59,226 bases of DNA from Oculatellaceae cyanobacterium bins.114 (lineage in GTDB: Bacteria > Cyanobacteriota > Cyanobacteriia > Elainellales > Elainellaceae), in assembly GCA_033764315.1 (NCBI GenBank), contig JANRJA010000249.1, forward strand, positions 1-59,226, written 5' to 3'. Made by a program: the position numbers and the translations under genes. The notes below the pieces were generated by a model, which did not search any database, was not told the origin of the DNA, and worked only from the letters and a program-made list of their open reading frames with translations. Shown in pieces: positions 917 to 57,900 of the stretch. Numbering within the stretch: the stretch's first letter is position 1; every line of letters begins with the position of its first letter.

Positions 917-1097
917 CGTAGATATCTTCCTCGTTGTCGTTCCACTCTTGGAATCCACTCTCTGACAAATGCATCATACTCAGAGTCTGGAGTCTTTCTT
1001 CAATCTCCCCAAATAGTTTGATTAACTCTTGAGGAGAGAGTTGGAATATCGCTTTTCGGAGGGTTTCGAGGTCTATGTTGAATGAGCTTTGAAGCAT
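903..1097 (-). CDS. Putative antitoxin of the MazF toxin
   Basis: 64 aa with acidic C-terminus WNDNEEDIYD; overlaps the toxin start. Confidence 0.7.
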   Translation of the reverse strand: MLQSSFNIDLETLRKAIFQLSPQELIKLFGEIEERLQTLSMMHLSESGFQEWNDNEEDIYDVES

Positions 1098-2999: not shown

Positions 3000-3068
3000 G
3001 CGATCGCACTTTACGCTTTGGTTGAGGAGGGGCGATGCGAAGCAAATCTCCCCCTTTGGGGCGATCGC
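3000..3068. repeat. HIP1-bounded ~69-bp repeat, copy 3
   Basis: Similar to 171-239 and 1343-1411. Confidence 0.8.
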
Positions 3069-3092
3069 TCATTAACGTATCACGATAAGAAC

Positions 3093-17658: not shown

Positions 17659-20021
17659 ATCGCAACCAAACACTTCCCCGCAAGGGGATTGAAACATGCT
17701 GCCATCAACAAAACCAAACTTGGCAAGTCCATCGCAACCAAACACTTCCCCGCAAGGGGATTGAAACGAATCGACGCTAACCAGCATTCTTGGTTCTGTT
17801 GAATCGCAACCAAACACTTCCCCGCAAGGGGATTGAAACTAAAAGTTATAGGGTCAAGCGATCGCCTTGCCTCATCGCAACCAAACACTTCCCCGCAAGG
17901 GGATTGAAACACTCAGTTAGTTATGGCGGCAGTGGATCGGGGGGATCGCAACCAAACACTTCCCCGCAAGGGGATTGAAACTTCGTCCGGTTTCTGCGTT
18001 CCCACCTGTAGCCATTATCGCAACCAAACACTTCCCCGCAAGGGGATTGAAACACATCAGAGGAGGTTAGAGGATGGGGCAGTCCATTATCGCAACCAAA
18101 CACTTCCCCGCAAGGGGATTGAAACAGTAGTGCTCTCAGTGGTTCTGATATCGAGAGCAAGTTATGGGAATCGCAACCAAACACTTCCCCGCAAGGGGAT
18201 TGAAACGTCTGGCGATCGCTCTAGTCCACAGAAATTTTTATATCGCAACCAAACACTTCCCCGCAAGGGGATTGAAACCAACAAGCTGAGAATTATGGAC
18301 TGGTGAGCTATCATCGCAACCAAACACTTCCCCGCAAGGGGATTGAAACAAGCTCATTTTTGATGCTCCTTATTCAAGGTTCAAATCGCAACCAAACACT
18401 TCCCCGCAAGGGGATTGAAACCCGTAGATCGTCCCCCAGAACTCAAAGTTGCCAAATCGCAACCAAACACTTCCCCGCAAGGGGATTGAAACTTGATCCA
18501 ACCTGGTGGCATTGCGGTCGGACTGGCATCGCAACCAAACACTTCCCCGCAAGGGGATTGAAACTGACGAGTCAATGCTTGGCGGTTAAGCATGAATCAT
18601 CGCAACCAAACACTTCCCCGCAAGGGGATTGAAACTACCCTACAGTCCAAATGAGTTTAGCGAGATCATCATCGCAACCAAACACTTCCCCGCAAGGGGA
18701 TTGAAACCCCCAAGTAAAAGGTTTTTCCCGTCTGGGCTAATACATCGCAACCAAACACTTCCCCGCAAGGGGATTGAAACAAAAGATTCCTACTTTGAAA
18801 TTGGTCAGGTAAAACATCGCAACCAAACACTTCCCCGCAAGGGGATTGAAACTTCAAGAATATCGGCAGCAAACTTAGTTACGAAAGATCGCAACCAAAC
18901 ACTTCCCCGCAAGGGGATTGAAACTTCAATGTCAAACTCTGTATTGTGTTTATCACAATAGGATCGCAACCAAACACTTCCCCGCAAGGGGATTGAAACT
19001 GAGGGGTTGAGATGGCGTGGGGCATGGAGCAACATCGCAACCAAACACTTCCCCGCAAGGGGATTGAAACTCAGCGATCGCTACTGGCACCAAATAACCA
19101 ATGGGATATCGCAACCAAACACTTCCCCGCAAGGGGATTGAAACTAGCAGTCTTTACGATTTCAGATACCCCAACACCTTCAGTCGCAACCAAACACTTC
19201 CCCGCAAGGGGATTGAAACACACCAGCCGAAGCCGACACAGTAGCCCCGGCCTTAGTCCGGTCGCAACCAAACACTTCCCCGCAAGGGGATTGAAACAGC
19301 TAAGAGGCAGGCTGTTGCTCGTGCTGCTTCTGGTCGCAACCAAACACTTCCCCGCAAGGGGATTGAAACAGTTCTGGGGGAAGTGAGGAATTAACGGCAG
19401 GACTGGCAAGTCGCAACCAAACACTTCCCCGCAAGGGGATTGAAACTGAAAATTATGCAGCATGGCCAACCCACAAACACAGTCGCAACCAAACACTTCC
19501 CCGCAAGGGGATTGAAACCCATTGCTTTAGCTAAAATGCCATCTAAGTGAAGGTCGCAACCAAACACTTCCCCGCAAGGGGATTGAAACTTAGGCGGCAT
19601 TAAAGGACGATTAACCCAACGACATCGCAACCAAACACTTCCCCGCAAGGGGATTGAAACAGTGGCACTGCAAGAGGAGTTGATCGCCTCGGTGAGTCGC
19701 AACCAAACACTTCCCCGCAAGGGGATTGAAACCCAAAACGGGAATTGCTGCTCCCACTCGGAATAGCGTCGCAACCAAACACTTCCCCGCAAGGGGATTG
19801 AAACCTGATGAGTTGGAAGCTTTTGTAGAGTCTTTAAGTGTCGCAACCAAACACTTCCCCGCAAGGGGATTGAAACATCTGGGTGAGTGCTTTTCAGTTG
19901 GAATTGGAGCAGTCGCAACCAAACACTTCCCCGCAAGGGGATTGAAACCAATTTTATTGGCAATGTCATCAATACCGCATTCGCGTCGCAACCAAACACT
20001 TCCCCGCAAGGGGATTGAAAC
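17659..20021 (+). CRISPR. CRISPR array, 33 repeats and 32 spacers; repeat RTCGCAACCAAACACTTCCCCGCAAGGGGATTGAAAC (37 bp)
   Basis: Repeats counted directly; spacers 34-44 bp; CCCC-GCAA-GGGG hairpin and GAAAC end resemble cyanobacterial type III repeats; no cas genes in the window. Confidence 0.99.
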
Positions 20022-30647: not shown

Positions 30648-32222
30648 GTGTCGTGGTGCTACTCCTTGCTTATGCATGTTCTTCGTTGTTTTTCCCGGTT
30701 TGCCCATTGTTTGTGTGTATTGCTGCTGGTTTTACTGAATGGGTATGCGCCTGCTAGTGCCGCTTTGCCCCAACCTTCCCAAACTGTTTTGGTCACAACC
30801 TTGATAGATGAGGGATCAGGCTCTTTACGAGCGGCTCTGGAACTAGCAAACCAGTCGGCAAACGAAACAATCATCGATTTGAGTGGGGTGCAAGGAACGA
30901 TCGCCCTTACCCACCCTCTACCTACTCTGCATCGTTCTCTCACTGTTTTGGGGGATGGAAATGACACGATTAGTGGACAAAATGCCCTGCGGGTTTTTGC
31001 GATCGCGGGTGGCAACGTTACCCTTTCTCATCTCACAATTGCGCATGGTCTGGCGCGAGGAGAAGATGGCAACTCTGGTGGGGGCGGCGCAGCAGGGATG
31101 GGAGGTGGACTGTTTTTAAATGGAGGAATCGTCACGCTCGATCAGGTCGCCTTTGTCCAAAATCAGGCGATCGGAGGCAATGGCAGTGCCTTAATCTCAC
31201 CCTCAGCGCAAATCGTCGCGGCCAAAGATCAGGTCGAGGTAAACCGGGGGGCGATCGCCGCTATCAATGGCATCAGTTTTGCAGACCTGGCTCCTCAGTT
31301 GGCAGAGGCAGGAGTCAACGTTGAAACGAGTAGTAACCGCTTTCAAGCCAATCGAGGGGCGATCGCCGGTGTTAATGGCGTTGGCATCAACGGCATTGGC
31401 AGTATTGCTTTTGGGGGAGGGGGTGGCTTTGGCGGTTTTGGCAACGCAGGCAATGGCGGCAACGGCGGCAATGCAGGATCAGAGGGTGGCAATGGCGGTA
31501 ATGGCGGCAATGGCGGTAATGGCGGAGTGGGTATCTTTGGCAGCTTTGGCAAACCAGATCGGTCTGATGAGCAGCCCAACCTTCAGCGCAATAGTGAGAC
31601 CGTTGCTTCACAGTTTCCGGCTGGGGTCATCGCCTTTGGAGGAGGGGGTGGCTTTGGCGGGTTTGGCAACGCAGGCAATGGTGGCAACGGGGGCAATTCT
31701 CCTGCGACAGGTGAGTCCGTAACAGGTGAGTCCATCGATCCAGTTCTTTGTCGTCAGGCAGGCAACGGGGGCAATGGCGGTAACGGGGGTAAAGGTGGCT
31801 TTGGCGGTGGTGGCGGCAGCGGCGGCTTGGGAGGTCAGGGAGGTCAAGTTGGTATGCCGGGACAGGATGGGGCGGCGGGGTTAGGTGGCTTTGGTGCTGG
31901 AGATGGCAGCTTGGGCTTTGGGGGAGGTGGCGCAGGACTGGGAGGAGCGATCTTTGTGCGGGCTGGAACATTGAATCTTAAGGATGTGACGTTTAGCCAG
32001 AATCGGGCGATCGCAGGCGAGGGAGCCAGTCCAGGACAGGGAAAGGGAGGTGCTCTCTTTGTCGTGACACAGGCACTAAACACCCAGGCTGGAATTCATA
32101 CTCCACCCCAAGTAAAGGTGACAGGGGCGATCGCCTTTGACAAAAACCAGGCATCTGATGCTGGAGGCACGGCAACCGATAACGATAATGTTTATGGAGC
32201 CACGATCTTAAAATCGATTTAA
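30648..32222 (+). CDS. Secreted glycine-rich protein with beta-helix-like regions
   Basis: Signal peptide; DEGSGSLRAAL motif; GGN repeats; GGAIFV/N.A.GG units; start probably 30675. Confidence 0.75.
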   Translation: MSWCYSLLMHVLRCFSRFAHCLCVLLLVLLNGYAPASAALPQPSQTVLVTTLIDEGSGSLRAALELANQSANETIIDLSGVQGTIALTHPLPTLHRSLTVLGDGNDTISGQNALRVFAIAGGNVTLSHLTIAHGLARGEDGNSGGGGAAGMGGGLFLNGGIVTLDQVAFVQNQAIGGNGSALISPSAQIVAAKDQVEVNRGAIAAINGISFADLAPQLAEAGVNVETSSNRFQANRGAIAGVNGVGINGIGSIAFGGGGGFGGFGNAGNGGNGGNAGSEGGNGGNGGNGGNGGVGIFGSFGKPDRSDEQPNLQRNSETVASQFPAGVIAFGGGGGFGGFGNAGNGGNGGNSPATGESVTGESIDPVLCRQAGNGGNGGNGGKGGFGGGGGSGGLGGQGGQVGMPGQDGAAGLGGFGAGDGSLGFGGGGAGLGGAIFVRAGTLNLKDVTFSQNRAIAGEGASPGQGKGGALFVVTQALNTQAGIHTPPQVKVTGAIAFDKNQASDAGGTATDNDNVYGATILKSI

Positions 32223-32277
32223 CTTGAAAACACCATAGATCTTTTTGTGTGGGCTGGGTCGTGCTAAGTCTCTCCTA

Positions 32278-32550
32278 ATAACAAACGAGACCTCGGAAGT
32301 TATAAACGAGACCTCGGAAGTTATAAACGAGACCTCGGAAGTTATAAACGCGATCTCAGAAGTTATAAACGCGATCTCAGAAGTTACAAACGAGACCTCG
32401 GAAGTTACAAACGCGATCTCAGAAGTTACAAACGAGACCTCGGAAGTTACAAACGAGACCTCAGAAGTTATAAACGAGACCTCAGAAGTTACAAACGAGA
32501 CCTCGGAAGTTATAAACGCGACCTCAAAAGTTATAAACGCGATCGCAGAA
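32278..32550. repeat. 13 x 21-bp minisatellite GTTAYAAACGMGAYCTCRGAA
   Basis: Units counted directly. Confidence 0.97.
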
Positions 32551-32818
32551 CCTATATAAGGTAAAACTTGTCTGTTATCCTTTTCACCCGCCTCAATGTC
32601 AACAGCAAACTAGTTTACATCCACTTTACGAGAAACTGATAAACCCCTCAGCTGCACATCCCCTAGCGTCTCACCTCTACAGCCATCCGTGAGAACACAG
32701 ATAAACTGCCAACCTGTCCTTTAAGCGTTTATAAAATCCCAAAAACTACTCAACCCAACCGTATGGGTACTTCACTATCTTAAAAAAATCTTCATCCATC
32801 CTAGCAAGGAGCATCTCT

Positions 32819-33558: not shown

Positions 33559-33744
33559 TCCGTCTAACTCCGCATTTGGCAAGATAGACAGAATCTCATC
33601 TATCCTAATTGCCATTTAGAGTGATTAGACAGACACAATTCTGTCTAATTCCCTGCATAAAGGTAGATAGACAGACGTAATTCTATCTAATTACCCCTAC
33701 AAGGGTAGTTAGACAGATCAGATCAGTCTACTTAATTGTTAGCC
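33559..33744 (+). other. attI region; crossover core GTTAGCC at 33738-33744
   Basis: GTTAGCCCG is the reverse complement of the first attC inverse core CGGGCTAAC (35274-35282); preceded by four TAGACAGA dyads. Confidence 0.75.
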
Positions 33745-35275: not shown

Positions 35276-35364
35276 GGCTAACAATCCCGTTGCACACCGA
35301 CCGTCCAGAGTTTCTTCATTTAGTTCGAGAGGTTATTAGCGGCGGGTGAACGGGGTCGTTAGAC
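35276..35364 (+). other. attC site 1
   Basis: GGCTAAC..GTTGCAC ... GTGAAC..GTTAGAC; imperfect palindrome with extra G; 89 bp. Confidence 0.88.
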
Positions 35365-35545
35365 GGCACCACAGCATTCTGTTTGCTCTACCGCTGAAAA
35401 CCTTGGATAACAGAATTACCCTCATGGGTACTGTCGATAAAGAAATATGTCACTTACGCTGAAATTCGATCAAGTAAGTTGAATTTCTTTGCTGAATGCT
35501 TCCTAGAACTTGTTCTTATCGTATGAAGCCCCTGGGAGAACTGCT

Positions 35546-38500
35546 ATGTATAAAGTTCGTGGTAAGGTTTTGGTAAAAGAAACTGTCATTGGCATTCCAA
35601 ACCTGCAAGTTGTACTCTACGACCTTGACAATCCTGAGCAATTTCAAGGCAGCAAAACCCCCGGCGAATTCTTTACAGATCCTAAAAATCCTGACCCAAG
35701 GTTATTCTGGCAGCTTTTTCCGGGCGATCGACTAGGATCAGTTTTAACAGATGGACAAGGTGAGTTTGAGCTAACCTTTGATGAACAGGCATTTCAGGCG
35801 CGTGAGCAAACGAAGAAACCAGATTTGGTGTTGTTTGTAATAGCTCCAGAAGATACGCTGATTGACGACAAGGGCAATGCACTTCCATTCCCGGATTTAA
35901 CCAGAAATCGTATCCTACACTACTCCTACGACATTGCTGTTAATGCAGGGAAGAGTGAGCAGTACATCATTCGACTCTCCAAAGCTTTTCTCGATCGTTT
36001 CCAAATTACCTATTCAAGCCCACTGGTTGACTTAACTGCTCCAACAGTTGAGTCTGTGACAAAGGATCTACAGGAATCCTTTAAATTCGAGCAGGGTATC
36101 CAGGCAGTCTTCAGAACACAGACTCGAACGCGATTAGAGCCTGCGCTTGAATCTAAAAAGAAAGCAGATCAAGCATTTCAAAACTTTACCCTCTCTAAAG
36201 TTTCTCCAGAAGTTCGAGCAAGCAACACGTATTTTACTCCTGGTGAAAATATTCTTGGTAAACTGCTTGAGTTATTCGGTGACCGACTGGCTAATTTACC
36301 AATGCTTGACCGTGGTGCTAGGCGCAAGCTGGTGCTTCACCTGACTGAAGAGCAACTTGAGTCATGGGGGCTTGCGATTAACGACGGAATCGTCAATGGT
36401 GAAGTCGCTCTTTCAGAGATTGTGACGTACATTCAAGATATGACGGGGGGTGGAATTCTAGAGTATTCTCGACCTGTTGTTGAGAATTGTCTGAAGGAAA
36501 AGGAAGCAGAACAACTGTTTGAAGCGGCTTTGGCAAGATGCAGAGCAGACTCAAATGAAGAAGGCGAAAATCCTCAACCTGATACAGAACCTGCGGAGCC
36601 ATCGGCTGACTTGACAACAAGCAGTCTTCTCCGTGAACAACTCACCCGCCAGATGAAGCATACGACCTCGCCAGAGCAAGAGTTGAAGTATGGGGTTGAG
36701 CGGGATGGAGAAATCATCGCCACAATCACTAAACCTAGTCCTGCTGATGTGACAGCCTATCACGATTTTCATGAACTTCAAATTGCCTTTGAGCATGTTT
36801 GGACGGAGGTATTTGACAAGTCGATGCCAACTTTCCTCCGAAGTATTTACTCAGAGATGGTGAGGTACAAGAATCGTGTATCCGGTGTAGAAGAACTACC
36901 ACCCATGCGAACTGTTCAAGATATGCGTAGCTTGTATGCAGACTTTGTAGAGTTGCAAGAAACTATCGAGAGCGTCAATCTAGCTCCACCTGAGGAAATC
37001 GAGTCAGTTCCGCGTTCTGTTAAAACGGTACTTCCTGAAATTATTGATGAGGATTGGTCAAACATGACTGATTCTGAGCAAACTGCATTACTTCGCCTTG
37101 GCACAGAAGAAGAGGCTGAATATGCTGCATGGAATCGCTATAACAATGAGAGTTCTATTCAAGTTGATTCCAGTGAAGTACCTCTATTTGGTCGTAATGG
37201 TTACAATGCCAGGAGATCTCAATATACGATAGGTCGGGATCGAAGAAGGGCAGATGCGCTGAGGATTCTTCAAGCAGCCCAAGCTCGTCCACGTCGCGCT
37301 ACTCAACCTACGACACCTCCACGCACTCGTAGTCATTCAACAAACACCAGGTTGCAGCGGCTCATGCAAGAACTAGATCAGCGTCTTGCTGAAACGTATC
37401 AGTTTGACATTTTTGCGCCGAATTCAGCTAACTATGGTTTGATGCTGACCTATCGGCAAAAGTGGGTTCCTGGTAATTACCAAGTTGGCGATTTGGTATC
37501 TACAATTCCGTTGGCTCCCAAGGAGATTCGGAAATACTCGACTAAGCAAGTCATCAAGAAGAGTCGCTCTCAAAAGGAAATTGAGGATGCTCAAAGCACG
37601 CGCAGTGCAGAATCTTCTTCGACTTCACGAGCAGATACAGAAATAGCAAAGCAGGCAAGGGAAAAAACTGCATTTGAAGCGAATGCCAGCGGGACGATTA
37701 GTGTTGGTGTATTCCAAGGACAGTTTGGCACAAGATTTGGTGTTGAAGCCGAAAAGACATCTTCGAGTACTAAAAAGAATTTCCGAGAAGCTGTCTTAAA
37801 AGCCTCTGAAGAGTACAAGCAGCAACGTCGATTAGAAATTGAAACTTCTTTATCTGAAGAGATAGAGGTAACAAGTTCGGGCGAGATTATGAACCCGAAT
37901 GATGAAATTACCGTGACCTATCTCTTTTATGAATTGCAACGCCAATTTGAGATTAGTGAAAGAATTCATCGTTTAACCCCGGTAATTCTCGTAGCGAATG
38001 ATGTGCCTTATCCAGATGAAATTGATGAGGACTGGCTGATTGCTCATGATTGGATTCTACGCCGAGTAATTCTGGATGATTCCTTTTTACCAGCCCTATC
38101 CTATGTAACAACTAGTATTGCAGGGGATGAACTGACTTTACAGACCTTGCATGATAATGTTAACCGTCAGGTTAATTTGGTGGAAGAACTGACAAAGCAA
38201 GTGCAAGCTAAAACTAGGCTCGCAAATGATGCTTTTGAACAACTGCGACGTTTGATGGATGTACCGATCAATAATGCTGATGATGCTGCGAAGCTGAAAG
38301 ATATTGGCATGGCAATGGTTTTTGGTCCATTTTCGCTTGCAGCTGGTAGCGGAGATGATGAAGCTGCTGAGAAACGGGAAGAGATTGCCAAGATGGCGAT
38401 TGAGCGATCAGATAAAGCTGCTCAAGAAGTAAGTGCCAAGCTTTCCCGTGAGGTTACTGCTTTGCAAGAAGCGATCGATAAATACACGAGAGCATTACAG

Positions 38501-39331
38501 GAACACTTCGATCGCCAAACTGCTATAGCCCGTCTCAGAATTCACATTAAAGAAAATATTTTCTACTACATGCAAGCAATATGGGATTATGAACCGCCCG
38601 ATCAAAGATTTTTTAGGCTCTACAACATTGAAGTCCCTTGGATTGAGTTGCAGGAAACAACAGCTAGGGTCCGAGCATCAGGCAGGCGGGTAGGAGATCG
38701 CAATGGGTTGAGATTTGCACCTGTTGACAACCCTCTATACGAAGTTGAATTGTCTATCCCAATTGCCTACTTTACTCAAACGCCTAAAAAGCTATCCCAG
38801 GTTGCCGACTTAGATAACTTGCTTGGCTACAAAGGAAACTACATGATTTTCCCAGCAATTCAGGCGAACTATTTGCATACCTACATGATGCAGGATTATA
38901 TCGACCCACAAACAGGCGGGCTACGAGATCCTGATGAGTTCAGCAACTACACTACTGAAGAACTCTTAGAGTATGCTTGTTGCTTACAAAAAGATGATCC
39001 AGAAATTTTTGCGGAATATCGAGAGTATCTCCTGAACCTGGTCAAAAAGCGTGTGGCCACACCGAGAAAAGAAAGCGAACTAGTTGTGGTGCCTACTGGA
39101 TCAGCTTATATCGAAGCATTACCAGGTAAGCATCCCATTCTGGAAGACTTCAAGCTTGTTCATCGTGCTTTGGATGTGAAGAAAGTTCAGGCAGAAGTTC
39201 GTAATGCTGAACTGGAAAATGTGCGTCTGGCTGCTCGTTTACTGGAAGGTGAACGGGAAGATCCTGATATCGATAAACGAATCATTATCGAGGGAAATAG
39301 TGAAGACATCATTATTCCTCCAGAAGCATAG
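35546..39331 (+). CDS. Large hypothetical protein, putative pore-forming/translocator (cassette 2)
   Basis: 1261 aa from ATG 35546 (GGAG RBS); beta-sandwich-like N-terminus; Ser/Thr-rich region with alternating hairpin; coiled coils; function is inferred. Confidence 0.75.
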   Translation: MYKVRGKVLVKETVIGIPNLQVVLYDLDNPEQFQGSKTPGEFFTDPKNPDPRLFWQLFPGDRLGSVLTDGQGEFELTFDEQAFQAREQTKKPDLVLFVIAPEDTLIDDKGNALPFPDLTRNRILHYSYDIAVNAGKSEQYIIRLSKAFLDRFQITYSSPLVDLTAPTVESVTKDLQESFKFEQGIQAVFRTQTRTRLEPALESKKKADQAFQNFTLSKVSPEVRASNTYFTPGENILGKLLELFGDRLANLPMLDRGARRKLVLHLTEEQLESWGLAINDGIVNGEVALSEIVTYIQDMTGGGILEYSRPVVENCLKEKEAEQLFEAALARCRADSNEEGENPQPDTEPAEPSADLTTSSLLREQLTRQMKHTTSPEQELKYGVERDGEIIATITKPSPADVTAYHDFHELQIAFEHVWTEVFDKSMPTFLRSIYSEMVRYKNRVSGVEELPPMRTVQDMRSLYADFVELQETIESVNLAPPEEIESVPRSVKTVLPEIIDEDWSNMTDSEQTALLRLGTEEEAEYAAWNRYNNESSIQVDSSEVPLFGRNGYNARRSQYTIGRDRRRADALRILQAAQARPRRATQPTTPPRTRSHSTNTRLQRLMQELDQRLAETYQFDIFAPNSANYGLMLTYRQKWVPGNYQVGDLVSTIPLAPKEIRKYSTKQVIKKSRSQKEIEDAQSTRSAESSSTSRADTEIAKQAREKTAFEANASGTISVGVFQGQFGTRFGVEAEKTSSSTKKNFREAVLKASEEYKQQRRLEIETSLSEEIEVTSSGEIMNPNDEITVTYLFYELQRQFEISERIHRLTPVILVANDVPYPDEIDEDWLIAHDWILRRVILDDSFLPALSYVTTSIAGDELTLQTLHDNVNRQVNLVEELTKQVQAKTRLANDAFEQLRRLMDVPINNADDAAKLKDIGMAMVFGPFSLAAGSGDDEAAEKREEIAKMAIERSDKAAQEVSAKLSREVTALQEAIDKYTRALQEHFDRQTAIARLRIHIKENIFYYMQAIWDYEPPDQRFFRLYNIEVPWIELQETTARVRASGRRVGDRNGLRFAPVDNPLYEVELSIPIAYFTQTPKKLSQVADLDNLLGYKGNYMIFPAIQANYLHTYMMQDYIDPQTGGLRDPDEFSNYTTEELLEYACCLQKDDPEIFAEYREYLLNLVKKRVATPRKESELVVVPTGSAYIEALPGKHPILEDFKLVHRALDVKKVQAEVRNAELENVRLAARLLEGEREDPDIDKRIIIEGNSEDIIIPPEA

Positions 39332-39354
39332 ATGAAATAACAAAATGGAGGTGG

Positions 39355-41481
39355 ATGATGAGTTGGACTGTGAGCTTCCAAGTTATTTCTGGTGCTTTTG
39401 GTAGTCGTCCCAGTGATGATCGAAATCAAATCTGGGTAGGGGAAACTGTACGTTTTACTCTAAGTCCAGATCCCAGTTTGCCCAATTCATACGCAATGTT
39501 GCAAGATGCCCGACGCACACGGAATTGGGCGCGTTTACCTCAAATGACTGTAACAGGTACACGTAGTGTGGTCGTAACAGCAAATGCGAGAGATCCGCTT
39601 CAAATAGAATATACGTTTCGGTGGGAAGGACAGAAGCAATTGCACTTCACTGGAACACCAGGAGAAATTGTGCTACCAACTGCTACTCGCGCAAGAAGAG
39701 TTTCTGCTACAACCCTATTTCCGCCCCTAGACTACGAACTGGATTTAAGAGTTGTTCCTCCGCCAGAGAGAGGAAGAGATGCAGCATCAATGGCAGGAGC
39801 GGCAAGCCGAGAATATCAACGAGGGGAGCGAGAACGAGAACAAGAACAAGATCGATATCGGGGATTGGAGAGAGAGCGACAACAAGCAGAGCAACGTGAT
39901 AGGGCTGCTAGGAGAGATGTAGCAGAAGAGGAAAGAAGCGAAATATTATCTGGTGCAAGAGGTTCTAGGCGAAGGGCATTAAGAAATGGGTTGCTTAACG
40001 TTCGCTTGAGGACTGAAACAGAGCTTCTCCGTATGAGTATTAGTCAAGTAGAGGATTATCTCAGAGATCTGCAAGCAGCAATCAATGTTACGCCACCACT
40101 CGACTTAGCTAATTATGGCTGGAGATCTCAAGGTTCTGAGTTGCAATATGCTGATGCTTGGGAAACAGAACGGTTGCAGGATGGGCGAATTAAGTTCTAT
40201 CAAGTACGCCGATTTAGAGCAACAAGACCAGCAGCAACGGCTCGTGGTTTTGAGATTAGATCCGTTCCTGAAAGCTATCGCCATAACGAAATTATTTTTC
40301 CTGGTAATGCCTGGATTGTTGCTCAAGTAACAGGGCGAAGCGAAAAAGCGCTTTTTCCAGTTGCCGATTTGTCTAGCCAACTTGAAGCGGAACAGTGGGC
40401 AAGATTATTTGGCAGTTTAGTCAGCTTGGCATTTTTTGTTGCAGAAGCTGCTGTTGCTCCAGAAGCTGCTGTTTTTGAGCTTTTGCTGGAGATGGTTCTT
40501 CCACCTGAAGTGTTGCTAGCAGTCGCAGGAGTATCTATTGTACGAGGATTGGTTTCTGGTCTGAGACTTGTCATTACACGAGGTCTCCGAGGTTCTGCGA
40601 GAAGTGCGGTTAGGAGTTTAACATCTACTGTAGATGATGCTGTAGGTCAAGGCAGACGCACTATTACTTCACCAAGATCTCCTTCTCCTTCTGCGACTGG
40701 TGGTACTGGAAGTCGGGCAGCAGGTGAAATATTGGATGAAGGTGGCGATATTGCACGACGAGGAGAAAGAGGAACAGAAGCCGCAACACGACCTGATAGT
40801 GAAGCACGAGGTACAACCTCTGCTAGCCGTGGAACTTTGTCAGTACCAGATACGGATGATATTGACATAATCCTAGATCGATCCTTTGAAGCAACATTTG
40901 GTGGGCAGTTAGTTGATATGAATGCTACCCCCTATCGCCCTCCCTCGGCTCCATTTTCTGTATCTGCTCGTGCAAGACAAATCTTCAGAGCAGCGCGAGA
41001 AAGGTTTCGGAGTCTTCAACCTGGATATGCGAGTCAACTTGGTGTTGGTCGAGGAGGGCAGGTTCATCATGCAATTGAATTACAAGTTATTCAAAGATAT
41101 GGATCGGTGTTTATTGAACGAGAGTTAAATTCATTTGTGAATATGCGAGGTATACCTCCTGAAAGAACAGCAAGTGGTATTATGGATGCTGTGAGGGGTA
41201 GACGGCAGTTACATAACTCTTATATTCGACAACAGTGGGATCGTCAGTATGCAATTCTCGATCAACGAATTAGGGAATTAGGACTACGGCGAGGTTCTCC
41301 TGAGTATCGTCAGTTTGTGCGGCAATCTCTTGAAGAAGGCAGACGTGAAATTGACAATAGTGTTGGTCAGTTCTTTAGCGAGGTTCGCATGGGAGAAACT
41401 TGGACTCGTCGAATGTTGCCTCAAGATATGGCATCTCTTCCTGATGCAGATGGTGTAGTTAGAAGAGCAATTTCTCAGTAG
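39355..41481 (+). CDS. Putative polymorphic toxin with C-terminal HNH/AHH-like nuclease (cassette 2)
   Basis: RBS GGAGG; hydrophobic central segment; low-complexity linker; tip QVHHAIE..RY..N.RGIP..LH..IR..W. Confidence 0.7.
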   Translation: MMSWTVSFQVISGAFGSRPSDDRNQIWVGETVRFTLSPDPSLPNSYAMLQDARRTRNWARLPQMTVTGTRSVVVTANARDPLQIEYTFRWEGQKQLHFTGTPGEIVLPTATRARRVSATTLFPPLDYELDLRVVPPPERGRDAASMAGAASREYQRGEREREQEQDRYRGLERERQQAEQRDRAARRDVAEEERSEILSGARGSRRRALRNGLLNVRLRTETELLRMSISQVEDYLRDLQAAINVTPPLDLANYGWRSQGSELQYADAWETERLQDGRIKFYQVRRFRATRPAATARGFEIRSVPESYRHNEIIFPGNAWIVAQVTGRSEKALFPVADLSSQLEAEQWARLFGSLVSLAFFVAEAAVAPEAAVFELLLEMVLPPEVLLAVAGVSIVRGLVSGLRLVITRGLRGSARSAVRSLTSTVDDAVGQGRRTITSPRSPSPSATGGTGSRAAGEILDEGGDIARRGERGTEAATRPDSEARGTTSASRGTLSVPDTDDIDIILDRSFEATFGGQLVDMNATPYRPPSAPFSVSARARQIFRAARERFRSLQPGYASQLGVGRGGQVHHAIELQVIQRYGSVFIERELNSFVNMRGIPPERTASGIMDAVRGRRQLHNSYIRQQWDRQYAILDQRIRELGLRRGSPEYRQFVRQSLEEGRREIDNSVGQFFSEVRMGETWTRRMLPQDMASLPDADGVVRRAISQ

Positions 41482-41556
41482 TGTCATTTATCCCTTGACC
41501 AGATCTTATTGAATTAAGCCAACTTATTACTGCTGCTTACCCCGAAAAGCTCTGCC

Positions 41557-41643
41557 GTCTAACAACCGTGTTGCAGCGGACGGTATCTAGATCTTGGTGT
41601 TGATACAAAGGTTATTCGCCGCCGCTGAACACGACCGTTATGC
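41557..41643 (+). other. attC site 2
   Basis: GTCTAAC..GTTGCAGCGG ... CCGCTGAAC..GTTATGC; TGCCGTCTAAC is complementary to the cassette start GTTAGACGGCA. Confidence 0.9.
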
Positions 41644-41696: not shown

Positions 41697-42011
41697 TCAA
41701 CCTACTTGTGCAATCACTTGACCAATTTCTTGAGGGGTTGCACCTGTTGCCAGCATTGCCCGAATCAGCAGTTCAATAGAAACAGACGCATCACCATTTT
41801 CAGCTTTGGCAACACGGGGTTGGCTGGAGTGCAATTTATCTGCCAGTTCTGTTTGAGTCATTGATTTTTGCCGTCGTTCCTTCAGGTTACGGCTCAATGC
41901 CAGCTTAATTTCAATGAGTGCTGTTTCTTCTGGCGTGAGGTCTAGAAATTCTGAAACTGTTCCAACTTTCCAGCCTTTGTCCTCTAATTTTTTTCTCTTA
42001 GCTTCGTCCAT
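41697..42011 (-). CDS. XRE/HigA-like HTH antitoxin (cassette 3)
   Basis: MTQTELADKLHSSQPRVAKAENG; start probably 42011. Confidence 0.85.
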   Translation of the reverse strand: MDEAKRKKLEDKGWKVGTVSEFLDLTPEETALIEIKLALSRNLKERRQKSMTQTELADKLHSSQPRVAKAENGDASVSIELLIRAMLATGATPQEIGQVIAQVG

Positions 42012-42015
42012 AATC

Positions 42016-42357
42016 CTAATCCTCCTGATCGTTGTCATACTTGCTCAAGCGTTTTTGGCAGGTATCAATAATGCTGGCGGGAGTTGTTCTTGTTGTTTTG
42101 TGAAATACCTCAAGAATGAGAATTGCATCGTCATCAATACGGTAGATGATTCTCCAATTCTTACCTGCATCTCGAACTCGCAGTTCATGGCAGTGTGCCC
42201 CAATACTCGGCATTGGTCTTGAGTGGGGCAATCCTAAACTTTCGCCCTGTTGCAATCTCCTCAACAAAACACCTGTTTCTATGCGTGCTTCTTGGCTAAA
42301 GGGTGGGGTTTTTACCTCCCCATGTAACCACACCAATGGTTTATCTGTTTTGTCCAT
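42016..42357 (-). CDS. RelE/HigB (Gp49-like) toxin (cassette 3)
   Basis: LGLPHSRPMPSIG..CHELRV..WRIIY..F.KTT..TP. Confidence 0.88.
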   Translation of the reverse strand: MDKTDKPLVWLHGEVKTPPFSQEARIETGVLLRRLQQGESLGLPHSRPMPSIGAHCHELRVRDAGKNWRIIYRIDDDAILILEVFHKTTRTTPASIIDTCQKRLSKYDNDQED

Positions 42358-42383: not shown

Positions 42384-42401
42384 CTTGCATTAGTTGTCGC
42401 A

Positions 42402-42487
42402 CTCCAACAATTGCGGTGCAGCGGATTGACGAAGCCGCTTGGGTAGGATGCAAAGGTATCGGCAACCGCTGACCGCAAGCGTTGTGC
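42402..42487 (+). other. attC site 3
   Basis: CTCCAAC..TTGCGGTGCAGCGG ... CCGCTGACCGCAA..GTTGTGC. Confidence 0.85.
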
Positions 42488-43322: not shown

Positions 43323-43407
43323 GCACAACAACCCCAATGCAGCGGACAATTGAGAGCGACTGGTGCTGAGCATTAGGCTATAGTTGCCACTGATTGGAAC
43401 GTTAGGC
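43323..43407 (+). other. attC site 4
   Basis: GCACAAC..CCAATGCAG ... CTGATTGG..GTTAGGC; CGCAGCACAAC is complementary to the cassette start GTTGTGCTGCG. Confidence 0.87.
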
Positions 43408-51957: not shown

Positions 51958-54900
51958 TTAGTTGGATGGGGTGTCGGGTTGGGTCAGTTGTAGGATCACC
52001 TCAAACCTATAGTTTTGAAGTAAATGATTTAAGCCCCTAATCAACGTAGTATGCTCTGCTGGAACTTGTTTGATCAGTGAGAATGTTTCCTCTTCATCAC
52101 AATTGAGGGCAGCCTGATGGAGGGCGGCAATCCAATCGGGGGGCATACATTGAAGCGATGAAGGATGGGGGATAAAGGATGAGGGTGGAGTGAGTTCTGC
52201 GCCCTGGTCTCTATCTTCTTGATAGCGATACAAGATCCCTAGATGGTCTGCCATCTTACTTAAGATAATGTCTATTTGAATGGGTTTACTAACAAAGTCA
52301 TCAAAGCCTGAAGCAAGGGCGAGGGTGCGATCGCTAGCCGATACCTGGACGGTGAAGGCAATGATTTTTGTGGGGACTGGAGAATCGGCGGATCGGGTGG
52401 ATGCGGTCTCATTAACTCTCTCACTTTCATGCTCAGGTGCTTGTGTTCTCAAACGCTCTAATTCTCGAATTCTCTGCGTCGTTTCACACCCATCCATCTC
52501 TGGCATGCGAATGTCCATCCAGATCAGGTGAGGGTGCCAGTGTTGCCAACAGGCGATCGCTTCTGCACCACTAGCCACATCTCGTACTTCTAACCCGATG
52601 CGAGTTAGGAGCTTGACCATCAATTGACGGTTGCTAGGTTGGTCATCGACCACCAAGATGCGATAGGTGGGCTGACCCAGAGCCACGCCAATTACCCGAT
52701 ATTTGTTAGCCGTCAGGGGCACATGAGTTATGTTGGTGGAGCACAATGGAATAGAGAAATTAAACGTGCTGCCTTGTGCCAGGGTGCTGCGAACGCTCAA
52801 GTCACCCCCCAATACAGTTGCAATTTGACGACTAATTGCCAGTCCCAGTCCGGTTCCCTCTAATGAAACTCTGCCCGCTTCAGCTTGGGTAAAGGCGTCA
52901 AAGATAATCCCTATTTCTTCGGGGGCAATGCCCACTCCTGTGTCTTCGACCTCAAAAGTTAGCATGACGAGCGGATCGGCAGATCGGGATTCGTCTGTAG
53001 CCTCATCTAAGACGGAGTTGTCGCGATCGACAAGATCTCTCTCTACCTCATTGCCAACCTCTGCGGAATCCTGCTCGACTTGAGGATGGTCAGCTGAGAC
53101 CCGCAGTTCTACACTCCCTTGATCAGTAAACTTAATCGCATTATTCAACAGATTAATGAGGACTTGGCGGAGCTTGTTAATATCAGTGATGACAAATTGG
53201 GGAGTATTGGGATTAATTTCAAGATTGAACTGTAACCCTTTATTGGCTGCTCGTTCTTGAAACATGCCTCGCAAATCGTATAACAGCCCATACAAATCAA
53301 TAGGGGTGTTTTCTAACGTGGTGCGTCCAGCTTCGATTTTAGATAAATCTAAAATTTCGTTAATGAGATGCAATAGGTGATCACCACTGCGATGCATGAT
53401 GCGGATGCAGTCTTGCTGTTCTAGATTTAAAGAGGAGTCGCGACGCAAGAGTTGAGTAAAGCCAAGAATGACATTCAGGGGAGTTCGCAGTTCATGGCTC
53501 ATGTTGGCTAGAAAAAGGCTTTTTGCTCGGTTTGCTGCATCAGCCGCTTCTACAGCTTGCTGGAGATCGACGGTGCGCTCTTGAATTCGTTGCTCTAGTT
53601 CTAAATTGATCTGTTGCAACGCAGCTTCGGCTTGTTTGAGATTGGTAATGTCATCATAGCAACCGAGCACACCGAGCACTTCGCCTTGGCTGCTGGTCAA
53701 GGGAATTTTGCTGCTACGGATCCAGATTTCTTCCCCATTTAAGTTGTTGGTTGGTTCCTCGTAGTTGAGCTTGGGCGTACGAGTATTCATCACCATGACA
53801 TCATCGGCCCGATAGAGGTGTGCCCAGTCTGCCCAGGGCAATTCCAGATCTGTTTTGCCAACAATTTCGTCAATGGTCAGTTGATAGTCTTGAGCAAAGG
53901 CAGAGTTGCAGCCCAGAAATCTAGATTGGCGATCTTTCCAAAACACTCGCTGAGGAATGGTGTCTAGAACGAGTTTCAACATGTTGCGAGATTCTTGCAG
54001 GTCTCGTTCGGCTTGTTTGCGATCGCCAATATCGGTGTGAATTCCCAGCATTCGCAGCGGTTGCCCTGCCTCATCCCAGGCGACGATTTTGCCAACCGAG
54101 AGAATCCATTTCCAATCTCCGGTTTGGGTGCGCTGACGAAATTCCACGGTGTAATCAGGACTTTCTCCAGCAATGTAAGACCGATAGGCGGCGGCGACTG
54201 ATTCTCGATCATCGGGATGCAATCGTTGAAGCCAGGCTGCATTTGTCTCTTGAAAAGTGGCTGGCTCGTATCCCAGCATAGTGGCATATTCTGGGCTGAC
54301 GATCGTCTCTCCAGTTTGAATGTTGAGGTCATAGAGACCTTGGCTAGTAGACCTAAGAGCTAATCGCAAGCGTTCTTCGCTGTCCCGCAGCAATTGTTCA
54401 GCTTGTTTGCGATCAGTGATATCGCGAGCCAGACCGATCAGACCGATGACATTGTTTTGATTATCGTACCAGGGACTTTTTGTGGTGAGATAGGTGCGGG
54501 TGCCGTCAGGGTGGGGAACCCATTCTTCAAAGGTTTCGGCAATGCCTGTTTGCATGATGCGGCGATCGATGGTTTGAATATGCTGCACCTTTTCAGGGGG
54601 CCAAAGTTCCGTGTCGTCTTTGCCAATTAATTGGTCGATCGGTTGACCAAAGAAACTGGCAAAGGTTGAGTTGGCCGTGATAATGCGTCCCTCTAGGTCT
54701 TTCACGAAGATGACATCGGGTGTGCTTTCAATCACCGACTGCAAGATCAGGTTCTTTTCGGCAAGGGTCGCTGAAGCCGCTTTTTGATCGGTGATATCTG
54801 CGACTACCCCAATCAGTTGTGCGGCGGCAGCATGTAAATGTCGAGGAATCATGCCCCAAACAGCGAGCCAACGAAGTTCACCATCTAAACGATGAATGCG

Positions 54901-57900
54901 GTATTCAATGTTGTAAGGTGCTCCGGTTTCAAAGGTATGGGCGATCGCTTCTATGACACGATCAGTGTCTTCTGGGTGCACCATTGCCAAAAAGGTTTCG
55001 CGATCGCCCGGAAAGGTGCCAGGTACATATCCAAAGATTTCTTGTGCTCGGTCAGACCAATTCAACTGCCCGGTTGACAGGCTACAACTCCAGGCACCCA
55101 TGTTGGCGGCATCTAGCGCGAGTTGAAGGCGCAATTGCTCAGCTCGCAAATCTTGAGTACGTCGCTGAATCCGCTCTTCCAGTTCGGTGTTAAGTTGTTG
55201 GATCGCCTCCATTGCCTGCAACCGTTCTATTTCAGCAGCGGCTCTGGCTCCAAATATTCTGAGCAATGCTTCTGCCCGTTGAGGATTCACAATCGCAGTG
55301 CGGTTGAGAATGCAAAGAACCCCGATCACCTCCCTGTTGTTGTTTTGTAAGGCAATGCCTAAATAGCTATCACTCTCAAATGCCACCAGATCTGGATCAA
55401 GGGGAAACTCTCTCTGCACATGGCTAGAGCAGTAATAGAATCCGTTTTGCAAAGTCCGCTCACAGGGAGTATGGAGGAAGAGATAGGAACTGTTCTCCTG
55501 GTTTTGACCATCAGCGCAAAATGCGAGGGATTGTAAGCGATCGCCCAGAAGTTGAGAAACAATCACATGGGACACATTGAGTGCTACTGCAATTTGTTGA
55601 GTTAACACTGGGAAGAAGTCTTCACCTGTGACAGACGCTGTTCCTTCGACTAGACTTTGCAGCACGAGTTCGGCTTGTTTGCGATCGCTGATATCTCGGC
55701 AAATGCAAAGCTGAACAGACTGTCCACTCCAATCAACTGGGTTTGAGCTAACTTCTACATCATAAATTGATCCATCTTTGCGGCGATGGCAGGTTTCAAA
55801 GGTGTTGTCACAAAAGGCAAACTCGTTAATCTTTTGCTCTAGTTCGGAACGTGTCCAATGGGCATCAAAATCAACTAAATTGAGAGTGATGACTTCTTCT
55901 AGAGAATAGCCCAGCATGTGGGCAAAACTAGCATTGGCTTCGATGACATGGCCTGCTTGATCTAAAATGACAATGCCGTCAATCGAGGTATCAAAGAGGG
56001 TTCTGCGGTGGAAAATTTCTTGAGCTAGGGCAATTTCGCTAATTTTGCGATCGGTAATATCATCGGCCAGACCAATAAAACGGAGCGGATAACCTCCAGC
56101 ATCTTGAATGACTGCTACCTGGACTGAAATCCAACGAATTGATCCATCTGGTCGAATAATTCGGTAATCTAGTTGACCACTATTTCCCTGTACTTTTGAG
56201 GCTATAAATGCCTGAACGCGATCGCGGTCGTCTGGGTGAATTGCCTCCATCCAAACCGAAGGGTTTTCTAGCAGTTCATCGCGCGATCGCCCCCAAATCT
56301 TTTCGTAGGCAGGGCCGATATAAGCAAACTGATCGGGATTGAGCTCTCGCACAAAAAACGTTTGCGGGATCGTATTGGCGATTTCGCGGAAGCGTTCTTC
56401 GCTCTCTTGTAAGGCAAGCTCTGTTAGCTTGCGATCGCTGATGTCGATGAGCAATCCATCCCAAACAACGCCTTCAGGGGTAGACTCTGGGCGAGATTTT
56501 CCTTGAATCCATTTCAATCGACCAGAGGGGGTGGTTAATCGACCTTCCCAATTCCAATCGGCACAGTTTTGTACGGCTATGGCAACCGAAGATTGGAGAG
56601 AGGGGAAGTCGTCTGGATGAATTAAACTCCAGACCGAATTGGCATCTTGAAGAACGCGATCGGGGGTTAGCTCTAGGAGGTCATTAGAACCAGGACTAAC
56701 ATAGGTAAAAAAGCCAACTCCATCGTTGCCAGGGAAGTAACGATACATCATCCCTGGCACATTTTTGACCAAGATCTGGAATCGGGCTTCACTCTCTTTA
56801 AGGGCTGCTTCCGCTTGTTTGCGATCGCTGACATCACAGGCGAGTGACAAAATGGAAACTAAATTTCCCTGCTCATCTAACAAAATGGAGTTGTACCATT
56901 CGCAGTCGATGACAGAGCCATCCTTGCGATAATTACGGTTGTGACAAGTTGTGCTAGTGCCTTGCAATAATTGGGTGGCAGCCTGATTCACATACTCTAA
57001 ATCATCCTCAAAGATGAATTGCCACTCCAGCATGGTTTTCCCCATCACCTCGTCGGCTGTCCAGCCAAAGATGGTTTCTGCCTGGTTAGACCAGCTTTCA
57101 ACTCGAAACTCTCGATTCCAGCGAATGGTTGCCAAGGGAGAGGTTTCGATGTGATGGGTTAGGGTTTGCAGTGCTTCTTGTAGTGCTAGTTCTGCTAGTT
57201 TGCGATCGGTGATGTCACGGTTCATCCCGGCATACCGATAGATTTCTCCAGCTTGATTGCGAATGGGAAAACTACAATCCCAAATCCAGCGAATCGAGCC
57301 ATCGGGATGAACAATGCGGTATTCGTCGTTGAAGAATTCGGTGCCCTTTAGCTCTTGCTGAAGCTTTGTTGAAATGCGATCGCGGTCTTCTGGGTGAATT
57401 CTATCAATCCAACATTCAGGGTTTTGATAGGTTATCTCACGAGAGCATTGCAAAATCTGCTCATAGGCGGGGTTGAGATAGAGCAGTTCACCCGTCTCCA
57501 CAACTCTGAGAAAGAAGACATCGTTAATACTATCGACAATCTGTCGAAATTGTTCTTCGCTTTCGTATAAAGCAACTTCGACTTGTTTGCGATCGGTGAT
57601 ATCGGTCAGACTGCCAACATAACCGATTAACGCACCTGTTGCATCTAGTTCTCTGGCGACTTGAACGTAGTACCAATTGATGCTGCCATCGGGGCGGAGA
57701 TGTCTCCCTTCTCCCTGTTGGATAATGAAATTGTCCGTAATCTCTTGCAAAGAGATGTCATTCCATTGAGCTAACGCAAACTCACGCTCATCGGGGTGCA
57801 GGGCTTCAATCCATCCTTTACCTAAAGCAGATTCTTTAGGTCTGCCTGTCATTTCACTCCAGCGATCGTTGACATAGACACAGTTTAAAGAGGCATCAAA

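Follow-up and report, generated by a model that had tools for sequence, protein, structure and literature searches.

Several described systems share features with the locus analysed here. Polymorphic toxins join a conserved N-terminal part to a recombining C-terminal tip, and one of these tips, Ntox5, is of the Photorhabdus virulence cassette (PVC) type and has no known immunity protein (Zhang, Aravind and co-workers 2012, PMC3482391, in the sections drawn on here). The toxins of extracellular contractile injection systems (eCIS) carry DUF4157 as their marker, many of them lack immunity genes, and it was suggested that they are made just before the producer cell lyses (Geller et al. 2021, PMC8213781, likewise in the sections used). 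The locus lies in a stretch of 59,226 nucleotides (nt), referred to below as the window, that comprises positions 1 to 59,226 of contig JANRJA010000249.1 from Oculatellaceae cyanobacterium bins.114 (GCA_033764315.1). A large integron gene cassette in this window carries two genes, here called gene 1 and gene 2. The best explanation, which has about the same chance of being right as of being wrong, is that the cassette is a carrier-plus-cargo polymorphic-toxin module without an existing name, and there is a fair chance that the module represents a new delivery class. Polymorphic toxins, aerolysin-type pores and CALIN arrays (clusters of attC sites lacking an integrase) are already known. What was not described in the literature searched is the family of gene 1, the constant pairing of its members with hypervariable cargo, a tandem R-G-[TIVL] tag in that cargo and the presence of the pair in one large cassette; the search, which left subscription-only papers and supplements outside its scope, returned no description of any of the four. 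As there was also no match in the family libraries, the system can still be called undescribed, as it was in a preliminary description made from the sequence alone.

The window had the look of a cyanobacterial chromosome, with GCGATCGC words occurring often and with a CRISPR array and large sensor kinases that contain PAS domains. Four related attC sites were found in it, all on the plus strand and with cassette open reading frames (ORFs) between them. Sites 1 and 2, about 88 nt long, had an R'' box (..YTAAC), an R' box (GTTRRRY) and a long hairpin of imperfect pairing in which bases bulge out on both strands, while sites 3 and 4 were of the same kind and located further downstream. When the four sites were aligned, pairing was kept despite changes on both sides in 10 of the 24 predicted pairs, and a covariance model built from them gave its own members scores of 76-101 bits. 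The sequence GTTAGACGGCA was present exactly at 35358-35368 (plus strand) and as its reverse complement at 41553-41563, with 6 matches in the window at no more than one mismatch compared to 0.63 expected from shuffles. The start of the cassette was complementary to its own R'' box (GTTAGAC at 35358, GTCTAAC at 41557). The best match to an internal attC site in 35371-41550 had a covariance model score of only 7.8 bits (E = 9.2), so that 35359-41637 is a single cassette of 6,279 nt. The preliminary description had proposed one intact two-gene cassette encoding proteins without an evident signal peptide, and on both counts it was borne out; its coordinates, the GTTAGACGGCA ends and the sequence features were as given, and all of its peptide motifs were found in the translations. 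The layout of the array is as follows.

35276..35364, plus strand: attC site 1 (R'' GGCTAAC, R' GTTAGAC; 76 bits), the crossover point in its R' box opening the cassette
35359..41637, plus strand: gene cassette (6,279 nt), running from TT in the R' box of attC site 1 to G in that of attC site 2
35365..35545, plus strand: leader of 181 nt before gene 1, with GGGAG a few bases 5' of the ATG
35546..39331, plus strand: gene 1, 1,261 amino acids (aa), conserved carrier and putative translocator
39355..41481, plus strand: gene 2, 708 aa, candidate modular cargo toxin
41557..41643, plus strand: attC site 2 (R'' GTCTAAC, R' GTTATGC; 101 bits)
42401..42487, plus strand: attC site 3 (93 bits), closing a cassette with a HigB/HigA-like pair on the minus strand
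43325..43407, plus strand: attC site 4 (82.5 bits), closing a cassette with two ORFs of no known family

An alternative upstream TTG start would extend gene 1 to 1,273 aa. The two genes were separated by 23 nt, with GGAGGTG directly before the gene 2 ATG, and no consensus promoter was found in the 181-nt leader. Neither product had an N-terminal hydrophobic segment resembling a signal peptide. The cassette that follows the toxin pair encodes a Gp49/HigB-like toxin and a helix-turn-helix antitoxin on the minus strand (41697-42357), opposite to the attC array. Toxin-antitoxin pairs with this orientation are a layout known from chromosomal integrons.

No integrase domain was found with Pfam among the 38 ORFs of the window, so that the attC cluster is a CALIN-type array rather than a complete integron. 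In the parts of Cury et al. (2016, PMC4889954) used here, CALIN arrays likewise consist of attC-bounded units in a same-strand array, and the present array of four attC sites without an integrase differs from them in the unusually large cassette (6.3 kb, two genes) and in an attC spacing above the default of 4 kb. The same parts of that paper state that IntegronFinder by default clusters attC sites only when the distance between them is below 4 kb and discards single sites. The spacing of attC sites 1 and 2 is 6.2 kb, and site 1 would therefore be left as a discarded singleton; default runs, reporting just sites 2 to 4, would probably overlook the present cassette.

Gene 1 belongs to a large family, with at least 1,492 matches at E <= 1e-3 among 8,000 scored candidates, and those relatives that carry a name were all labelled 'hypothetical'. 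In a collection of contigs from one genome per species, 224 of 250 pattern matches were confirmed as gene 1 homologues and 79 loci were kept. The bacterial hosts of these loci were cyanobacteria, Bacteroidota, Acidobacteriota, Gemmatimonadota, Actinomycetota, Chloroflexota, Planctomycetota, Verrucomicrobiota, Pseudomonadota and Myxococcota, and five records were archaeal (two haloarchaea and three methanogen-related organisms); diderm bacteria, monoderm bacteria and archaea are all represented. Neither protein of the pair had a match above noise in Pfam, NCBIfam, PADLOC or PHROGs. Gene 1 had no relative in the PDB by sequence or by profile and matched only 'hypothetical' clusters in the ESM Atlas, and Pfam analysis of 40 further relatives gave one carbohydrate-binding-type insert (CHB_HEX_C_1/Fn3_assoc) and nothing else worth noting. 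A tblastn search of plasmids with gene 1 returned four full-length matches, on megaplasmids and all unannotated or 'hypothetical', while the cassette as a whole had no plasmid match by megablast.

Residues 996-1025 of gene 1, a stretch of 30 residues, also recurred at 77% identity in Sinorhizobium medicae pSymA (locus L080, 6001-6090) and in 12 similar plasmid records, within short stretches that were either unannotated or labelled 'hypothetical' and that are probably remnants of genes.

When the attC model was applied to the 79 related loci, it found a single site (26.5 bits), at 1453-1541 of a Microcoleaceae locus (L002) and 6.5 kb upstream of the gene 1 homologue. With just one distant site among the 79 loci, the pair is not cassette-borne in the sampled relatives, at least with this type of attC, although the L002 site indicates that related integron arrays do exist in them.

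The evidence that gene 1 forms a recurrent unit with a variable gene came from the genes that follow it. The preliminary description had asked whether gene 1 homologues are routinely followed by genes with variable toxin tips, and a co-oriented ORF was found after gene 1 in 72 of the 78 usable loci. The gap was no longer than 60 nt in 56 of the 72, with a median of 14.5 nt. In four of the six loci that had no following ORF, less than 800 nt of sequence remained after gene 1. The following ORFs, here termed cargo, were 84-1,140 aa long and fell into 46 BLAST components among 73 proteins. No other recurrent family was found near gene 1 in the 78 loci, the next commonest being present in 8 of them at scattered positions. 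Homologous cargo was infrequent even in closely related loci (4 of 9 locus pairs at gene 1 identities of at least 70%, 4 of 25 in the 60-70% range and 8 of 87 in the 50-60% range), which indicates that the cargo turns over faster than the carrier. Pfam matched 16 of 72 cargo proteins, mostly to polymorphic-toxin domains, namely PT-TG (4), Peptidase_C70 (3), Ntox5 (2) and Extensin-like_C (2, both under the cut-off), with CdiA_C, DUF4347, DUF6973, PKD and a borderline hydrolase found once each; the other 56 had no match. A hydrophobic segment in the middle of the protein was present in 24 of the 73.

The cargo was distinguished from its surroundings by a short motif, R-G-[TIVL], that occurs in tandem at the N-terminus, usually with an acidic or polar residue in front. 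Of the 73 cargo proteins, 23 had two or more copies within their first 70 aa and 38 had at least one; at the N-termini of 775 other ORFs from these loci, the corresponding numbers were 6 and 78. In 500 shuffles of the cargo N-termini, the mean number of proteins with at least one copy was 10.1 (maximum 18) and with at least two copies 0.68 (maximum 3). The enrichment did not extend to other ORFs: two or more copies were found in 2 of 157 later ORFs on the same strand, one of which (in L059) resembled a second cargo gene, and in 3 of 586 upstream or opposite-strand ORFs. Consecutive motifs were spaced by exactly 5 residues in 16 of 41 cases. To judge from this sequence pattern, the repeats may mark proteins as cargo for the gene 1 carrier.

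The second tagged ORF of L059, a Prochloraceae contig, lies at 3005-4036, after the first cargo gene, and has three tandem copies of the motif. Some loci may thus have arrays of cargo genes.

These observations bear on the possibility that the two genes are mere neighbours, gene 1 having a structural or other non-toxin role and genes like gene 2 gathering at a recombination hotspot. An interaction between carrier and cargo is something we infer, and gene 1 and 56 of the 72 cargo proteins have no annotated domain, which leaves room for such a view. It is nevertheless very improbable, since the co-orientation and the median gap of 14.5 nt are maintained across phyla and domains of life, the tag is specific to the adjacent gene, and both genes were captured in one cassette without an internal attC site.

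Gene 2 itself was modular. The AlphaFold2 (AF2) model of the protein had a mean predicted local distance difference test score (pLDDT) of 74.4 and a predicted template modelling score (pTM) of 0.49, with residues 538-680 of the tip confidently modelled and the linker at about 412-532 disordered. The following parts could be distinguished.

39355..39759, plus strand: residues 1-135, immunoglobulin (Ig)-like β-sandwich (pLDDT ~90)
39808..40359, plus strand: residues 152-335, predicted long charged helix followed by an α/β domain (215-335) in the AF2 model
40360..40587, plus strand: residues 336-411, predicted hydrophobic helices in the AF2 model
40747..40854, plus strand: residues 465-500, predicted disordered linker with three R-G-T motifs, from the AF2 model and the sequence
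40957..41409, plus strand: residues 535-685, C-terminal candidate toxin tip, in which H, E, N, N, R and H residues are invariant

The Ig-like domain was the only part of the gene 2 model recognised by Foldseek, with filamin and other Ig-like proteins as matches (E 3e-3 to 2e-2). It was shared with the cargo of four other loci (L004, L012, L032 and L037). An N-terminal domain common to all cargo was considered and rejected, as this domain was found in just 5 of 73.

The tip proved to be widely distributed. Comparison of gene 2 with every protein of a representative library gave 185 matches. Among the best 150 of these, about 130 covered only the C-terminal part, mostly residues 500-690, in proteins of 83-1,503 aa, and 17 covered the N-module (query start at or before residue 120). 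Of 63 tip carriers that were scanned, mostly the longer ones, 42 had an N-terminal eCIS_core/DUF4157 domain, 3 had PT-TG and 19 had nothing recognisable. One relative, P0124, shared 84% identity with residues 2-464 of gene 2 and had no relationship to it beyond them; this protein and a gene 1 relative, P0003 (94% identical), were each located on a 15,432-nt contig. Such a combination of a shared N-terminal part with a different tip is what the exchange of tips in polymorphic toxins leaves behind. The proposal in the preliminary description of a variable, polymorphic-toxin-like tip thus gained support, both from the many other proteins that carry the tip and from this tip-swapped relative. The companion proposal that the tip is a nuclease did not. 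Neither gene 2 nor its tip had relatives in the PDB by sequence or profile, 18 aligned members of the tip family had no match in Pfam (HNH/EndoVII-type nucleases included), no nuclease, of the ββα-metal fold or otherwise, was among the 40 listed Foldseek matches of the whole gene 2 model (ranks up to 48), and the invariant residues define no fold. Without a Pfam or PDB relative, the nuclease idea remains a guess. The N-module gave only scores under 0.8 in the ESM Atlas.

The R-G-T motifs of gene 2, at residues 472, 485 and 492, are located just past the end of the identity to P0124 (464) and just before the tip, and relatives that share the N-module had similar clusters of motifs at the same place. 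Most DUF4157 carriers of the tip lacked such motifs, and in 22 of 96 at least one copy was found at a distance of 40-130 residues upstream of the anchor of the tip.

As in polymorphic toxins, the cargo of related loci includes PT-TG, Ntox5, CdiA_C and papain-like peptidase domains. The module differs from polymorphic toxins in that 1) no known trafficking domain or linked secretion system was found with Pfam, NCBIfam or among the neighbours, 2) the cassette lacked a cognate immunity gene, and no such gene could be recognised in relatives, and 3) the conserved partner is a separate protein of 1,200 aa from an unnamed family. The resemblance to eCIS and PVC effectors lies in the tip, which is the C-terminal domain of many DUF4157 proteins (42 of the 63 tip carriers scanned), in the presence among the cargo of Ntox5, the PVC-type tip of the sections of PMC3482391 cited above, and in immunity genes that are often lacking, the absence of signal peptides and the occurrence in both bacteria and archaea. 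The effectors differ in that gene 2 has no DUF4157 domain, that the cargo has R-G-[TIVL] repeats instead, and that tail-like eCIS genes were neither present in the window nor recurrent beside gene 1 homologues.

For gene 1, residues 140-1261 (1,122 residues) were folded by AF2 with 47 relatives, the N-terminal domain lying outside the model, and the result had a mean pLDDT of 73.3 and a pTM of 0.60. Conservation in the family was best from about residue 620 to the end and in a block at about 395-425. The protein was divided as follows.

35546..35950, plus strand: residues 1-135, N-terminal domain, β-rich by eye from the sequence and conserved in the family alignment
35963..37405, plus strand: residues 140-620, mostly helical region of variable sequence that contains the conserved block at about 395-425
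37418..38005, plus strand: residues 625-820, aerolysin-like candidate pore module, the best-conserved part
37661..37741, plus strand: residues 706-732, amphipathic stretch of alternating hydropathy with Ser/Thr-rich flanks (low pLDDT in the model)
38117..38554, plus strand: residues 858-1003, predicted long antiparallel coiled-coil hairpin in the AF2 model
38258..38362, plus strand: residues 905-939, hydrophobic tip of the coiled coil (low pLDDT)
38630..39244, plus strand: residues 1029-1233, C-terminal α/β domain and long helix with many invariant residues, the α/β domain confidently modelled

In the candidate pore module, long β-strands (628-656, 661-672, 771-782 and 790-817) were arranged around an insertion, residues 674-761, which contains the Ser/Thr-rich tracts and the alternating stretch that had led the preliminary description to propose a β-pore-forming toxin. 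The period-2 hydropathy was conserved over residues 708-732 in the mean of a 48-sequence family alignment, and the β-moments of the windows starting at residues 712 and 710 ranked at percentiles 98.6 and 98.8 within the protein, respectively. The second candidate for membrane insertion, the tip of the coiled coil, had a hydropathy of 1.58 in the 15-residue window 920-934. Foldseek comparison of the gene 1 model with the PDB returned the aerolysin-type proteins Tpp80Aa1 (E 1.1e-2, prob 0.92) and Cry78Aa (E 1.4e-2, prob 0.98) and, at E 0.06-0.14, Tpp49Aa1, Cry35Ab1 and BinAB. TcA chains, XaxB, IpaB and colicin E3 were further weak matches in the same range (E 0.06-0.14), and viral structures gave only coiled-coil and tail-protein noise. 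The fold and the Foldseek run are weakly compatible with a β-pore-forming module, as far as a predicted model can indicate. Of the pore-former proposal, the conserved amphipathic hairpin between predicted long β-strands stood, while the weak structural matches and the lack of a Pfam family told against it.

Gene 1 resembles the aerolysin-type toxins, including the Toxin_10 members BinAB, Cry35, Tpp49, Tpp80 and Cry78, in its predicted long β-strands around an amphipathic, Ser/Thr-flanked hairpin. It differs from them in having no family match and in the weakness of the Foldseek E-values and template modelling (TM) scores; moreover, the protein that contains the candidate module is about four times larger than these toxins and has additional domains as well as a coiled-coil hairpin, and the partner of gene 1 is an enzyme-like cargo rather than a second pore-former subunit. 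The Tc (toxin complex, ABC) and AB-type binary toxins appear to follow the same logic of a large conserved translocator with hypervariable enzymatic cargo and no signal peptides. The TcA chains were among the weak Foldseek matches noted above, and there was no RHS cocoon, TcA-like size or domain set, or Pfam match. The likeness is one of functional analogy only.

According to the carrier-plus-cargo interpretation, the gene 1 product would be a conserved carrier that oligomerises and inserts its amphipathic β-hairpin, perhaps together with the hydrophobic coiled-coil tip, into a membrane, in a role akin to that of B components in binary toxins. The exchangeable cargo encoded by gene 2 would consist of the Ig-like domain, hydrophobic helices, the R-G-T linker and a C-terminal toxic tip, with the R-G-[TIVL] repeats serving as a tag for recognition, loading or processing by the carrier. 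The cargo would draw on the pool of eCIS and PVC toxin tips. The absence of an N-terminal hydrophobic segment and the distribution of the family over diderms, monoderms and archaea suggest that release would occur by lysis of the producer cell, as proposed for eCIS particles, and not through an envelope-specific secretion system. If the proteins were made just before lysis, as the cited sections of Geller et al. suggest for eCIS toxins, this would explain the missing room for an immunity gene, the lack of N-terminal hydrophobic segments and the occurrence in hosts with every type of envelope. The structure of the cassette, the gene 1 family, its linkage to cargo, the turnover of that cargo, the sharing of tips and the enrichment of the tag were observed directly. 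Pore formation, binding of the cargo by the carrier, the route of release, the target and the activity of the tip are all proposed here by deduction. A more specific version, that gene 1 is a new self-contained protein-delivery toxin machine of bacteria and archaea, in which a single pore-forming carrier of ~1,200 aa serves cargo tagged with tandem R-G-[TIVL] pentapeptides and equipped from the contractile-injection tip pool, the whole being mobile as one integron cassette, must be considered doubtful.

Several observations weigh against the carrier-plus-cargo interpretation, 1) the insertion at 674-761 was modelled as low-confidence helices (pLDDT 28-57), 2) the similarity to aerolysin-type proteins was weak (E ~0.01-0.14, TM-scores 0.05-0.23), and the top Foldseek matches in the PDB were Rad50/SMC coiled-coil ATPases (E 6e-4, TM-scores 0.1-0.2), which we attribute to the long coiled coil in gene 1, 3) the Foldseek query was the whole 1,122-residue model and not residues 625-820 separately, 4) no pore-former family (aerolysin, ETX-MTX2 or Toxin_10) was found for gene 1 in Pfam at E <= 1, 5) any R-G-[TIVL] motif in the first 70 aa is limited to the 38 of 73 cargo proteins, and gene 2 has none at its N-terminus, its motifs being internal, 6) the cargo set came from mechanical ORF calls, so some starts and some 'cargo' ORFs after long gaps (e.g. 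that of L052) may be wrong, 7) no export or lysis gene was linked to gene 1 in the window or among the recurrent neighbours of its relatives, and 8) only 75 nt separate the gene 2 stop from attC site 2, in which no immunity gene can fit, and the lack of an immunity gene in the cassette, with none recognisable in relatives, is unusual for kin-directed toxins. A complex prediction for gene 1 residues 340-1261 with gene 2 residues 455-530 gave a score of 0.00 in two runs without controls and is evidence neither way.

The lack of an immunity gene is also what would be expected if the cassette encoded an abortive infection or defence system, an alternative also named in the preliminary description, in which gene 1 would work inside the producer cell, either as a sensor or as a pore former of the gasdermin kind, and the downstream gene would be a suicide effector that is inactive until infection. 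A third ORF was present beyond the cargo in 39 of 72 loci, and a known immunity family was recognised in none of the 39. A conserved sensor with a variable effector is a common layout in defence systems, neither protein has a segment resembling a signal peptide, there is a toxin-antitoxin pair in the cassette array and a CRISPR array and a TIR protein in the window, and a STAND (signal transduction ATPase with numerous domains) nucleoside triphosphatase (NTPase) is the next gene in L039. This alternative is unlikely all the same. PADLOC matched neither protein, no NTPase or nucleic-acid-binding domain was recognisable in gene 1 with Pfam or NCBIfam, and tblastn found no gene 1 homologue in 50,697 phage records. 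In addition, the cargo has domains of exported polymorphic or eCIS toxins (PT-TG, Ntox5, CdiA_C and the tip that also occurs in DUF4157 proteins), and both the CHB_HEX_C_1/Fn3_assoc insert found in one of the 40 gene 1 relatives and the Ig-like domain of gene 2 are typically extracellular.

The same lack of signal peptides, the occurrence of the family in all envelope types including archaea, the absence of linked lysis or export genes and the two candidate membrane-inserting elements of gene 1 would also suit a kamikaze mode of release, in which gene 1 permeabilises the membrane of the producer from the cytoplasmic side, in the manner of a holin or a colicin lysis protein, and has no part in entry into a target. 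A multidomain protein of 1,200 aa with a conserved β-rich N-terminal domain and a large C-terminal domain is far more complex than the known lysis proteins, and a role in lysis leaves the cargo-specific tag on the adjacent gene unexplained. Such a function is decidedly improbable.

If the carrier-plus-cargo interpretation is correct, it would add a delivery route for polymorphic toxins that is independent of the type of envelope and that spans many phyla and the archaea, where its components are at present annotated just as 'hypothetical protein'. The R-G-[TIVL] tag provides a testable handle on the recognition of cargo and possibly a means to load foreign proteins. Together with linkage to gene 1, it makes candidate toxins of dozens of cargo families that have no domain annotation (56 of 72 here). 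In integron biology, the locus as read here would mean that a complete two-gene weapon can move as one cassette, and cassettes of this size may be under-counted, as they fall outside the default attC clustering distance given in the cited sections of PMC4889954.

The remainder of the window contained several other elements. Upstream of the MerR and epimerase genes that precede attC site 1 is a 153-nt element (33562-33714) bounded by GTCTAAC...GTTAGAC and containing three palindromes based on TAGACAGA. It was considered as a fifth attC site and rejected, as only its 8-nt ends pair and the attC model gives no score; it may represent an operator region or else the relic of a site of recombination. 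The segment before it (30648-32595) encodes a 524-aa glycine-rich repeat protein without a family match, followed by a 104-aa ORF with 12 copies of a 21-nt tandem repeat.

The CRISPR array, at 17659-19950, has about 33 copies of a 37-nt repeat spaced by 71-81 nt, and the mechanical ORF calls across the array are artefacts; the ORFs scanned in the window included no cas genes. The TIR protein, encoded on the minus strand at 3093-6515, is 1,140 aa long and has leucine-rich repeats, Roc, COR-A and COR-B domains and a C-terminal TIR domain. It is a STAND-like protein of the ROCO type with a candidate defence effector, and its gene contains 13 copies of a 69-nt repeat. A toxin-antitoxin-like cluster at 572-2999 comprises PemK/MazF, ParE and a UPF0175 and DUF3368 pair, and a duplication of 390 nt relates 171-562 to 1343-1962 (93-95% identical). 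At the other end of the window, a 2,379-aa hybrid sensor kinase with many PAS domains and with GAF, HisKA, HATPase and receiver domains is encoded on the minus strand (51958-59097), and several of the repeat families in the window are accounted for by the internal repeats of this protein at a spacing of ~380-390 nt.

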